Shown here in pieces: positions 3,528 through 7,410 of a stretch of DNA of 64,000 bases. A program made the translations under genes and the position numbers. Source of the DNA: a virus (taxonomy: Duplodnaviria; Caudoviricetes). The notes under the pieces were generated by a model. That model did no database searches and had not been told where the DNA came from. It saw nothing but the letters and a program-made list of their open reading frames with translations. The stretch is taken from positions 1 to 64,000 of IMG/VR virus record IMGVR_UViG_3300013383_000028; one strand, 5' to 3'. Numbering within the stretch: the first letter of the stretch is position 1; every line of letters begins with the position of its first letter.

Positions 3528-4643
3528 TTAAGGTTGGATATTCTTGTAAAAATCTCGCATTTTCTCGGAATGCTGATCTATGTCCTTTTGAGACTCACGC
3601 AAATAGTGGTCATGCACCGTCCCCATATTAGTCCATCCACCGAAACTCATTGTACGCAATTCAGGCCAACCGAGGTGATAGCCTAGCGACGCGAATGACC
3701 TGCGCAAGCCATGGACAGAAACAAGCGGAAGATTGTTCGCCTTGCAGATTTTGTTTATCTGCTTCCCAATTGCTTGCGGTGTTAACTGCACGATATATTC
3801 ATCCGGCTTAACATCCGGAAGAATTTCAAGAAGACGTGGAATGACAACCGGAATTTGCCGTTTAGATGCGTATGTTTTGTTTGTATCTTTCTCAACCAGC
3901 TTGTTGTTGAAATCCAAAACGCGCGCACCAGACACGTTGATTGTAGCAGACCCGTCTTTTGATGTTATAATATCTTTCCGCTTTAAGTCAACTAGCTCGG
4001 AAAGCCGCAACGAATGCAGTGCCAACAGTGCCGCTAACTCACAGGTCTTCCCACGAATCAAAGGGATGAACGCTTGGATTTGTTCATAGTCCAAATATGG
4101 AAGGCCGCCCTTGTTAAATTTCGGAAGCTCAACTTTTGGTGGGGTTATTCCAACATACCGCATAGCCGCAGAAATGACGTTCCACCGATTAAAGACGGTC
4201 TTCGCGGAAACGTGTTTTGATTCCTCGTTAACAACCGATTGCCAATCGATGATGGCGGAAATATCCGTGTTCATGTATTGCTGGAAACCATGCCGAAGAA
4301 CGATATCATATCCGCGATATGTGGCCGGCGATATTATCTCGGATTTCCCATCCATCATTTTTTGTATTGCTTCTTTTACGGTTAGCTTCGGAGCAAGTTT
4401 TTTCTGCTCAATAAAGCCAGCGCGGATGGCCTTCGCCTTTGCAATGCACTTATCCCTTGTTGGCTCGGTAATGCTTTGCTTCTCCGCGTCAAGGTAAATC
4501 CTCCAGTTGCCACTTGCTAACTTTCGAGGGGACGGAACCTTAATCTCGTCTTTCTTCTTCCGCTCCTTTATCTGCTTTTCACCACACCAGTTGCAAAACA
4601 CGGAATTGGCTTCAATCTCACGGCCACAGGACTTGCACTTCAT
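3528..4643 (-). CDS. int: Tyrosine integrase with N-terminal Zn ribbon
   Basis: Catalytic-type motifs LRLSE(R), HGLRRSF, GGW...HY; N-terminal CKSC...CNWC. Confidence 0.93.
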   Translation of the reverse strand: MKCKSCGREIEANSVFCNWCGEKQIKERKKKDEIKVPSPRKLASGNWRIYLDAEKQSITEPTRDKCIAKAKAIRAGFIEQKKLAPKLTVKEAIQKMMDGKSEIISPATYRGYDIVLRHGFQQYMNTDISAIIDWQSVVNEESKHVSAKTVFNRWNVISAAMRYVGITPPKVELPKFNKGGLPYLDYEQIQAFIPLIRGKTCELAALLALHSLRLSELVDLKRKDIITSKDGSATINVSGARVLDFNNKLVEKDTNKTYASKRQIPVVIPRLLEILPDVKPDEYIVQLTPQAIGKQINKICKANNLPLVSVHGLRRSFASLGYHLGWPELRTMSFGGWTNMGTVHDHYLRESQKDIDQHSEKMRDFYKNIQP

Positions 4644-4874: not shown

Positions 4875-5501
4875 CTACTTTTTACGAATGACTTTAATGA
4901 TCGACCATGTGATTATGCCAGCAGATACAGCAATCATACCAATCACAACCCATGCAACGATACTGATGTTTCCGTGTTTAATAAGACCGACGGTTGGCGC
5001 ATTTGCGTCCCAAATGACATAGAGAAGTAACGTGAATGCCATGGCTGTGCGCAAACGCATGAGCGTATAAATTACGGGTTGACGTGAACTCAGTTGAGTT
5101 TGAACCATGTCAACCTTTTCTTTCTGGTGGGACGTCTCTGACTTTGACAATTGTAACTCGCCGGCCATCTTTGAAATCTTTACCTCATATTCGTGGCTCT
5201 GCGACTCTAATTCATGAACCTTCTCTTTTAGTGCCGGAACATCATCGGCTGAACCAGAAAGCCCAAAGAGCTTGTCAAGCGATAAATCTAAAACTTTACA
5301 AAGAGCAACGGCGTTGTATAATTTCGGGTCCGTCTGTGTTCCGTCACAGAGACGGTCTACGGCGGACTTCGATATGCCCGAAAGTTCAATCAGATCGTTG
5401 CTCGTGTATCCCTTTGCCATCTTTGCCCGCTTTATGCTGGGCTGATAGTCTGCAATGTATGGGGCTAACTCCTGAATTGCGCTCATAGATATAACCTCCA
5501 T
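4875..5501 (-). CDS. XRE-family HTH protein with coiled coil and two C-terminal TM helices
   Basis: IKRAKMAKGYTSNDLIELSGISKSAVDRL HTH; hydrophobic AMAFTLLLYVIW and IVAWVVIGMIAVSAGIITWSII segments. Confidence 0.75.
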   Translation of the reverse strand: MEVISMSAIQELAPYIADYQPSIKRAKMAKGYTSNDLIELSGISKSAVDRLCDGTQTDPKLYNAVALCKVLDLSLDKLFGLSGSADDVPALKEKVHELESQSHEYEVKISKMAGELQLSKSETSHQKEKVDMVQTQLSSRQPVIYTLMRLRTAMAFTLLLYVIWDANAPTVGLIKHGNISIVAWVVIGMIAVSAGIITWSIIKVIRKK

Positions 5502-5783
5502 CGTATTTTCTCAGGATTTGCGATATTATCTCAAATCCTGAGTGCTGAAATCGCAACTGCTGCGAGTAAAACGCAGAACTCCGTCTGGTCGAAATTCTGC
5601 CTATCTGCTACGATGTAGGCGTAGCAGATCAGTGGACAATGCAAGGTGGTCTGCTGCAATGCCCTGCCGCCTCTGGCACAGGCGGTGGGGCTGACGAAAA
5701 GCATAACGGGTGTCCGTTATACAGGACTTACCCGGAAGACGGATAGTAGAAAAATGGACACAATGTTTGTGCAAGATGAACGG

Positions 5784-5812
5784 TTGAAAAAGACGAACAA
5801 ACGTTTTAGAAT
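5784..5812 (+). promoter_or_regulatory. sigma-A promoter with a LexA (SOS) box in the spacer
   Basis: TTGAAA-17bp-TAGAAT; CGAAC-AAAC-GTTT at 5794-5806 matches GAAC-N4-GTTY. Confidence 0.75.
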
Positions 5813-5849
5813 AGACACACGAAGGAACAATACGCAGGGGAGTGACGAA

Positions 5850-5990
5850 ATGGAAAGTGTAAAAGCAAGGGAACAAAGAGACTACATGAATGCAAATGAG
5901 AAGTTTGTCAAGCTGAACGAAACAAACAGGAGAATCATCAATCAGATGATTTCTGACCTTTTAACAGTTCAGCAATCGCAGCATCAATAG
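5850..5990 (+). CDS. 46-aa putative antirepressor resembling the repressor C-terminus
   Basis: GGGGAG RBS; KFVKLNETNRRIINQMISDLL aligns with repressor DYLKLNDVNRAAIDAAIAELL. Confidence 0.7.
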   Translation: MESVKAREQRDYMNANEKFVKLNETNRRIINQMISDLLTVQQSQHQ

Positions 5991-6258
5991 CGGCACGATT
6001 CACGTCGTTCAGTTTCAAATAATCAGGGTTGAGCTTGTCCGGAAGGGCAGGCTCTTTTTTTCTGCCCATAACCTCATCGACTGAGACTTTTAGGTAGTCG
6101 GCAATCTTTCTGGCTGTTTCAGGCGAAATTGTTCCATCGGGTTTGCTCCTTAAGTTTGAAAATGCGGTCTTAGAAACGCCGGCTCCGACCATCATCTTGG
6201 AAGGGGACATTCCGTGTGCTCTTGCTAAGTCGCGCAGGTGGTTGTACATTGTGAACAT
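5938..6258 (-). CDS. CI-like XRE repressor without a peptidase domain (106 aa)
   Basis: HTH (GMSPSKMMVGAGVSKTAFSNL...KIADYLKVSVDEV); divergent from the cro-like gene; AAGGAG RBS. Confidence 0.85.
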   Translation of the reverse strand: MFTMYNHLRDLARAHGMSPSKMMVGAGVSKTAFSNLRSKPDGTISPETARKIADYLKVSVDEVMGRKKEPALPDKLNPDYLKLNDVNRAAIDAAIAELLKGQKSSD

Positions 6259-6316
6259 AAAATGTGCACTCCTTTTGTCAGAAGATACAAAAGTGCATAA
6301 TAAATGTCCTTTTTGC

Positions 6317-6345
6317 TTGACTGAACACAAACTATGTGCTAAATT
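6317..6345 (+). promoter_or_regulatory. Rightward early promoter (PR-like)
   Basis: TTGACT-17bp-TGC-TAAATT; surrounded by GTGCA(C/T)-type repeats (putative operators). Confidence 0.65.
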
Positions 6346-6449
6346 ATAGCCACAAGGACACAGAAAATGCACTATTCTGTTGGTTGGCGCTTGCATTATA
6401 GTGCATAAAGTGTGTACTTGTCAATGCATTTTTGACGGGAGATGAAAAT

Positions 6450-6695
6450 TTGAGGAAAGCAAATTTCACGAAATTTGGAATTGAAGTAAAAAAGGCGCTG
6501 GTCGAACGATGCTGGTCATACACAGACCTTGCAGAAGAAGTCCGTAAAAAGACCGGGCTGCACTGCGATTCTCCGTATATCAGCAGAATCCTAACTGGCG
6601 TCAGATCACCAGACAAAATCACAAATGCAATCTCAGAAATACTGGACTTGAAAGAGGCCAGCGAATATGCCGAGAACGCAAAAGAAGAAACCTGA
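6450..6695 (+). CDS. Cro-like HTH protein
   Basis: TTG start after GGGAGA; HTH (WSYTDLAEEV...SPYISRILTG); divergent from the repressor. Confidence 0.8.
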   Translation: MRKANFTKFGIEVKKALVERCWSYTDLAEEVRKKTGLHCDSPYISRILTGVRSPDKITNAISEILDLKEASEYAENAKEET

Positions 6696-6717: not shown

Positions 6718-7410
6718 ATGAAAGACCAAAACTACACCGAAACAGGCGATGAACGTAAACTGGTGTATTTGACATCCAATGTCGATGAACCCTTCACAAC
6801 TTCTGAAATAATCGCTGAATGTGCCGGCGTAAAAAGACACGCAGTTCAAGTGCTGATTCAACAACGCGAAGCGGACCTTCGAGAGTTCGGAAGGGTATCA
6901 TTTGAAATGAGACCCTTGCAGACGCGAGGCGGTCAGCAAATGATCAAGGTGTATCACCTGAATGAGCAACAAGCGACGCTGTTACTTACGTTCCTCCGCA
7001 ATACACCGGTTGTTGTTAAATTCAAGAAGAATTTGGTCAGACAGTTCTTCGCCATGCGGGAAGAACTGATGAACGCACGGACAACCCGCGCGGCACGAAA
7101 ACCAATCAGACTTGAAATGACCGACGCGATCAAGGCGTTGCCGGATAGTCCGCACAAACAGCTGAAATACGGTCAGTATACGGACATGGCATACAGAATG
7201 GCGATTGGAAAGTCGGCGCGGCAAATCCGTGAAGAACGTGGCGCAGACAAAAAGGTGAATGCGAGCGACTATCTGACGGCAGAAGAACTGCAAACGGTAT
7301 CCGCAATGGAAAATCGCGTCTCGGTTCTTCTGCAAGTCGGAATGGACTACCAGCAGATCAAGCGGCTTCTTGAAAAGAAGCAATGCAGGGAGGAAATATG
7401 CCAAGGTTGA
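6718..7410 (+). CDS. rha: Rha-family phage regulatory protein
   Basis: TTSEIIAE...HAVQVLI...YHLNEQQATLLLTFLRNTPVVVKFK Rha N-terminal domain. Confidence 0.85.
   Translation: MKDQNYTETGDERKLVYLTSNVDEPFTTSEIIAECAGVKRHAVQVLIQQREADLREFGRVSFEMRPLQTRGGQQMIKVYHLNEQQATLLLTFLRNTPVVVKFKKNLVRQFFAMREELMNARTTRAARKPIRLEMTDAIKALPDSPHKQLKYGQYTDMAYRMAIGKSARQIREERGADKKVNASDYLTAEELQTVSAMENRVSVLLQVGMDYQQIKRLLEKKQCREEICQG

Follow-up and report, generated by a model that had tools for sequence, protein, structure and literature searches.

How can DNA damage reach a prophage whose repressor is unable to cleave itself? To our knowledge, most gut Clostridia prophages carry short repressors without an obvious SOS induction route, and the locus described here raises the question in a very compact form. 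It lies in a window of 64,000 nucleotides (the whole stretch of DNA that we analysed), which is a portion of an 82.9-kb IMG/VR virus record. The reading that we favour, with a probability of about 0.7, is that a 46-aa protein encoded opposite the 3' end of the repressor gene would act as an SOS-triggered induction switch for this prophage. The region around the small open reading frame (ORF) is a prophage immunity region. On one side of the ORF, both on the minus strand, lie the integrase gene (3528-4643) and the gene of a 208-aa helix-turn-helix (HTH)-plus-membrane protein that adjoins the module (4875-5501); these are the neighbours, and no plausible gene was found on the plus strand 5' of 5850. 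On the other side lies the repressor gene (P0002, 106 aa, 5938-6258, minus strand) and, divergent from it on the plus strand, a cro-like HTH gene (87 aa, 6432-6695; phrog_1468, E 3e-11), 3' of which come a Rha-family regulator (6718-7410; Phage_pRha, E 6.5e-16) and, beyond it, a YqaJ recombinase gene. According to Pfam, PHROGs and AlphaFold2, the repressor is made of an HTH domain, a flexible linker and a C-terminal helix. It matches HTH families only (HTH_26/HTH_3), and no S24 peptidase domain was found in the Pfam and PHROGs comparison, as had been claimed in an earlier reading of this DNA from its letters alone (the sequence-only reading).

Between the repressor and the cro-like genes there are four 18-bp operator-like sites with the pattern AGTGCAT-N6-TGTNC (6253-6270, 6292-6309, 6356-6373 and 6400-6417). 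The pattern is found six times in the window against 1.3 expected, a number reached in 0 of 100 shuffles, with the four sites just mentioned clustered at 6253-6417, and the same region contains the inverted repeats I1 and I2. A consensus promoter, TTGACA-18-TATAAT (6395-6424, minus strand, 12/12 matches in the scan), points towards the repressor gene and is overlapped by the operator at 6400-6417, an arrangement that suggests strong but autoregulated transcription of the repressor. The leader of this transcript is ~130 nt long. The candidate early lytic promoter TTGACT-17-TAAATT (6317-6345, plus strand) is flanked by two operators. We also noted a 13-bp dyad, CACAA-N3-TTGTG, at 5759-5771, just 5' of the promoter of the small gene, and a one-mismatch copy of it at 6326-6338, in the spacer of the candidate cro promoter; as its frequency in the window is not above chance, it has been left out of the model.

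The small gene (P0001, 46 aa, 5850-5990, plus strand), a candidate antirepressor gene that we refer to as the microprotein gene, is convergent with the repressor gene and overlaps its 3' end, on the opposite strand, by 53 nt. The promoter scan located a promoter TTGAAA, 17-nt spacer, TAGAAT at 5784-5812 (plus strand, 10/12 matches), and inside the spacer between the -35 and the -10 is the sequence GAACAAACGTTT (GAAC-AAAC-GTTT) at 5795-5806; here too, ORF, overlap, promoter and spacer element are as the sequence-only reading had described them. Taken as a 14-mer, CGAACAAACGTTTT (5794-5807), the element is a predicted LexA box of the Cheo type that touches the -10 hexamer. A ribosome binding site (RBS), AGGGGAG, can be read at 5836-5842 (plus strand), 7 nt 5' of the ATG, and the scan found an intrinsic terminator, with a 10-bp stem followed by T7, at 6031-6061 (plus strand), inside the region that codes for the repressor linker. 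Judged by these sequence features, the 46-aa ORF is a complete gene with its own promoter, LexA-type box, RBS and terminator. The public gene calls contain a 78-aa version (P0003, 5754-5990), identical on 34 contigs, which starts at an ATG located 5' of the promoter. The lengths of the relatives (42-46 aa) show that the true start is the ATG at 5850, and many annotations probably mis-call the family or lack it altogether. The AlphaFold2 model of the microprotein is a two-helix hairpin (helices 4-20 and 24-45, pLDDT 94).

Word-based and exhaustive HMM searches of public metagenome assemblies retrieved a microprotein family of ~40-58 aa, forming 18 clusters at 90% identity. At the 50% identity level, small proteins were 13 of the 15 significant representatives (at least 13 clusters, out of 1.84 billion representatives searched). 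The microprotein matched no Pfam or PHROG family at E values up to 0.1, and no relative of the module was found among cultured phages by blastn or tblastn. Searches for related loci with the repressor alone or with a tail-only alignment gave nothing among viral contigs, and the repressor alignment gave nothing among genome contigs. A DNA pattern taken from the overlap region did recover related loci, in IMG/VR and in one metagenome-assembled genome (MAG). There are seven further distinct loci, L003 (=L009), L011, L007 (=L014), L008, L005, L015 and L016, a count that includes two found before the pattern search. Four of the ten viral pattern matches (L006, L010, L012 and L013) were chance occurrences of AIDAAIA in unrelated proteins and were discarded. 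The seven loci share the layout of the window, with at least four repressor DNA-binding types among them, and the whole transcription unit is conserved in 8 loci (the window plus these seven). The -35, 17-nt spacer and -10 arrangement is present in 7/7 related loci, 36-37 nt ahead of the microprotein start codon; the sequence at the RBS position is AAAGGAA, the start is ATG (GTG once), the ORF has 42-45 codons and a hairpin plus T-run follows ~40 nt further.

A more distant locus, L024, was found in genome G198 (G198:C36, ~1250-1602). There, a 32-aa convergent overlapping ORF with YQLLTDENKQKV faces a repressor of 114 aa with the C-terminal end YDLLNEENQKFIDDLIDKLL, and the terminator is again in the linker region. 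No LexA box was found at the microprotein gene of this locus, so that SOS control is not universal and L024 may represent a form of the switch with another trigger. Since it has the convergent paired genes, the paired architecture is older than the tail variant found in the window. A second small ORF (~49 aa, MDILEELNK...) is located directly 5' of the L024 microprotein, in the same operon. In all 9 loci the microprotein gene overlaps a repressor gene that carries a paralogous tail. The hairpin plus T-run occurs at the equivalent place in every locus including L024, with at least four different sequences; what is kept is the structure of the terminator and not its sequence, because the hairpin variants encode different repressor linkers on the other strand.

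The resemblance between the 46-aa product and the repressor C-terminus, the core of the sequence-only reading, holds up in several comparisons. By BLASTP, microprotein residues 16-44 align with repressor residues 77-105 with 12/29 identities (pairwise E 3e-7), and hhalign aligned the microprotein profile with the repressor-tail profile over 32 columns with 96% probability (E 4e-9). When run on six-frame translated genomes, the microprotein HMM matched the convergent repressor tail as well, with 29.4 bits in G001 and 19.2 bits in G198. In a column-shuffle test the score was 45.0 against 11.7±2.4, a value reached by 0 of 2000 shuffles. Because the overlapping frames couple some of the matching columns, we repeated the test on the uncoupled, overlap-free part (microprotein residues 1-29 vs. 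repressor residues 71-90), where the score was 21.7 against 9.4±2.1, reached by 1 of 2000, with the same offset as in the full test. Within the microprotein, helix 2 is the counterpart of the repressor C-terminal helix in the alignment. At the DNA level the two 3' ends are no more than 47-56% identical, which speaks against a recent inverted duplication; the paralogy is old and not a fresh repeat, and so would be any duplication behind it. The stretch 5947-5979 is a quasi-palindrome in which each tail (..LL..Q.S..) is antisense to the helix core of its partner, so that the constraint between the two frames is mutual and symmetrical.

On the repressor side, AlphaFold2 predicts a five-helix HTH domain at residues 4-63, disorder at 64-84 and one helix at 85-102, the confidence for the tail being moderate (pLDDT 60-65). 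The C-terminal module, residues 76-106 (5941-6033, minus strand), follows the pattern LNPDY(L/M)KLN..NRAAIDAAIA.LL and is the predicted target of the microprotein. Among repressor homologues, the N-domains of different types are 14-42% identical and the last 30 residues 70-100% identical, a near-invariance that is partly one of ascertainment, as word-based and pattern-based searches need shared words. In L003 and L007 the tails are identical (30/30), as are the microproteins, over N-domains that are only 24% identical. The hydrophobic residues of the tail, Y80, L83, I91, I95, L98 and L99, are found at a spacing of 3-4, and N87 is invariant in the repressor tails and present in almost all microproteins. 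This sequence pattern would fit a short coiled-coil-like pairing helix.

The principle of such a control is already known from two systems. Most Bacillus arbitrium phages carry an AimX-AimC-AimL module (Kabel et al., Nov 2025, bioRxiv 10.1101/2025.11.23.689978), in which AimC is an HTH repressor of 80-140 aa that lacks an autocleavage domain, AimL is cro-like and AimX is a protein of 29-80 aa whose gene is convergent to aimC and sometimes overlaps it. In phi106, a LexA site immediately precedes the AimX ORF of 29 aa, which shares 30 bp with aimC. It was found experimentally that AimX binds the AimC surface used for C-terminal oligomerisation, with loss of oligomers and of DNA binding, and recoded and start-to-stop aimX alleles indicated that it is the protein that acts and not an antisense RNA; the authors compare the mechanism to SinI-SinR (10.1101/2025.11.23.689978). 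The window has the same ingredients, i.e., a 106-aa HTH repressor without autocleavage, a divergent cro-like gene and a convergent 46-aa ORF with a 53-nt overlap and, as in phi106, a LexA-type site just upstream. The combination of LexA control and domain mimicry put forward in the sequence-only reading is therefore preceded by phi106 AimX and is not unprecedented, while the combination itself is supported in silico. However, the two modules differ in several respects. The aimR-aimP genes are absent upstream of the small ORF, the hosts are Clostridia and not Bacillus, and the module appears to be under LexA control alone. Furthermore, the putative antirepressor of the window is homologous to the repressor tail, for which the paper reports no equivalent in AimX, the overlap is shortened by a terminator embedded in the repressor gene, and several heteroimmune DNA-binding domains are combined with the same type of tail and microprotein. 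The microprotein had no tblastn match in 50,697 cultured-phage records, where the repressor matched only HTH domains from phages of Streptococcus, Enterococcus and Campylobacter, none from Bacillus, the comparison being made through these records and not with the AimX and AimC sequences themselves. The best annotated HTH match, cI of Streptococcus phage MM1, has a different layout, and the lysogeny control of phiCDKH01 of C. difficile is not similar either.

SinI-SinR of B. subtilis (PDB 1B0N) is the other precedent. Also here a small helical antagonist shares sequence with the C-terminal oligomerisation region of an HTH repressor, and a SinI-SinR heteromer replaces the homo-oligomer, as we propose for the pair of the window. 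In contrast, SinI-SinR is a chromosomal biofilm switch that is not controlled by LexA and whose genes do not overlap convergently, and the SinR tail has two helices where one is predicted for the repressor of the window. SinR aligned with the repressor without significance, at E 0.25 and in the HTH part only, SinI was not found by sequence or fold, and PDB sequence and Foldseek searches returned nothing informative. LexA-controlled antirepressors that act on non-cleavable repressors have been described, such as Tum of phage 186, GfoA/GfhA of Gifsy, AntC of N15 and Ant of SPC32H (PMC3121763). They resemble the proposed switch in that SOS acts indirectly, through a LexA-repressed antirepressor gene, and in that action in trans on several prophages is possible. 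Yet these proteins, which come from Gram-negative phages, are larger and unrelated. Their genes lie apart from that of the repressor, and none is a paralogue of the repressor's oligomerisation helix; for the microprotein, no Pfam or PHROG match places it in a described antirepressor family. The module of the window is an unrelated, arbitrium-free family found in Clostridia phages.

With these precedents in mind, we infer LexA binding, a heterodimer, loss of DNA binding and induction, in the following course. In the lysogen, host LexA bound to GAAC-N4-GTTT between the -35 and the -10 would keep the microprotein gene shut. Once DNA damage had removed LexA, the 46-aa protein would be made, and its helix 2, backed by helix 1, would pair with the C-terminal helix of the repressor and displace the second subunit. 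The HTH domains, now monomeric, would vacate the four dyad operators at 6253-6417 and the operon of the cro-like and Rha genes would be turned on. The alternative that survives best, unlikely as we consider it, is that the microprotein does bind a helix of this kind without being the antirepressor of its own phage, and acts instead as a stabiliser or tuner, on the repressors of co-resident prophages or on a host protein. Its function is deduced solely from its homology and its context, Rha is encoded by the phage too, so that another route of induction may exist, and a tail common to heteroimmune phages would permit action in trans. However, the linkage is strict, with overlap with a repressor of paralogous tail in 9/9 loci, control of SOS type suits an inducer better than a stabiliser, and both precedents, AimX and SinI, abolish DNA binding.

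For the proposed switch to answer to SOS, the box in the promoter spacer would have to be a LexA operator. GAAC-N4-GTTY is found at 5 sites in the window against 4.4 expected, i.e., not above chance, and we give weight to the box because of where it lies, because relatives conserve it and because it matches SOS boxes of hosts. The 14-mers are CGAACAAACGTTTT in the window, AGAACAAAAGTTCT in L003, AGAACGAAAGTTCT in L007, CGAACATTCGTTCT in L008, AAAACATTAGTTCT in L005 and AAAACATTTGTTCT in L015. A comparison of these promoters, six different variants, shows constant AAC and GTT around a variable central N4, and the position of the box within the promoter is kept in 8 loci, two of them with AAAC as the left half-site. 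One of the related loci, L016, is contained in the MAG Clostridiales bacterium UBA4696 (G001), which gives us the host genome of a related prophage. In G001, AAACAAACGTTT is found ahead of both lexA and recA, with 3 occurrences in 2.2 Mb, and the extended form AAAACAAACGTTTG precedes each of the two genes; RAACAAACGTTY has three sites in the 2.2 Mb, 2/3 of them at lexA and recA. In the host family, 9/16 lexA loci have RAAC-N4-GTTTG 70-140 nt upstream, most often as GAACAAATGTTTG, and the lexA boxes read GAAC-AAAT-GTTTG. The boxes of lexA, recA and ruvC in C. difficile are GAAC....GTTT, and the LexA consensus of B. subtilis is GAACN4GTTC (PMC4234289). The box of the window matches the SOS operator of this lineage, as represented by G001, which hosts a related prophage, and by the family of G001, though the window phage may have another host, and it is placed where bound LexA would block RNA polymerase. 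The SOS-box interpretation of the sequence-only reading thus gains in silico, with a core conserved in relatives and resembling the lexA and recA boxes of the related prophage's host. The third RAACAAACGTTY site of G001, L022 (G001:C196:10340-10351), has a clpC-like gene on one side and, on the other, mraZ, where a division and cell-wall cluster begins, and may represent an SOS link to cell division in that lineage.

It could be argued that the spacer dyad is bound by a phage or other regulator and not by LexA, which would leave the gene outside SOS control. The chance frequency of GAAC-N4-GTTY in the window, the AAAC left half-site of two loci and the L024 locus without a box all go in this direction. 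However, AAAC-N4-GTTT is the exact form found ahead of lexA and recA in G001, and GAAC-N4-GTTT is found ahead of lexA in the family of G001 and in C. difficile. The box cannot be the operator of the repressors because their DNA-binding domains differ while the box stays, and the operators of the window are a different 18-mer. We consider this explanation improbable, more so than a different target of the microprotein, and LexA remains our candidate for the protein that would bind the box.

The two genes may also be coupled at the level of transcription. A terminator-like hairpin was found by the scan at 5701-5722 (minus strand), at a position that is conserved in the relatives, since in all loci there is a hairpin ~60-80 nt 5' of the microprotein promoter (with equivalents in L003, L007 and L005), and it is followed by a conserved (A/G)TAGAA(A/T) element. 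It is probably the terminator and insulator for the repressor transcript, which probably crosses the entire microprotein gene in antisense before it ends there. In the opposite direction, the derepressed promoter would send transcription across the final ~125 nt of the repressor gene, as far as the embedded terminator, and this could contribute a minor effect in cis. Which of the two, transcript or peptide, matters most can be approached through the codons that do not overlap the repressor gene. Between L003 and L005 these have 15 differing sites, distributed 4/1/10 by codon position, with pN 0.09 vs. pS 0.80, and on this codon pattern the small ORF is a translated gene under purifying selection. 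Conservation in related phages, on which the sequence-only reading had made its proposal depend, is found together with this selection. We take the protein as the main effector because the peptide is under selection and the overlap is short and terminated. That the effect comes solely from the RNA or from transcription itself, with an antisense transcript meeting the 3' end of the repressor mRNA and an incidental ORF, is very improbable: the transcripts do converge, the small one covering ~125 nt of the repressor gene and the repressor mRNA probably spanning the whole small gene to 5701-5722, and antisense control was also the first hypothesis for aimX, but purifying selection acts on codons outside the overlap, the start codon (ATG or GTG) and the RBS are conserved, AlphaFold2 gives a confident helical hairpin for a peptide that is homologous to the repressor tail, the terminator shortens the antisense overlap and the recoded and start-to-stop aimX alleles of Bacillus phages point to the protein as effector.

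If the protein is an SOS-made antirepressor, the module would be a route that couples LexA to the repressor through a protein of 42-46 aa, which gene finders often miss or mis-call, and would take the AimX and SinI principle, a dominant-negative microprotein copy of an oligomerisation helix, outside Bacillus and outside peptide signalling. A shared tail and microprotein across immunity specificities also predicts damage-induced cross-induction between prophages. A wider proposal, which we put at somewhat less than even odds, is that tail, microprotein, LexA box and terminator form a portable cassette that moves by recombination to unrelated DNA-binding domains, cross-induces co-resident prophages and arose by inverted duplication of the repressor 3' end, with the quasi-palindrome as its trace. 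If that were true, one SOS-made microprotein could unlock every co-resident prophage with the tail, even among heteroimmune gut phages. The design is compact, 280 bp being enough for promoter, operator, ORF and a linker-embedded terminator, and may suit use as a synthetic switch.

Finally, the 208-aa protein that adjoins the module (4875-5501) combines an HTH at its N-terminus with a coiled-coil stretch and, at the C-terminus, membrane helices; it could serve as a regulator tethered to the membrane or in exclusion. A 198-aa counterpart is found beside the related module in L003 (4520-5116).
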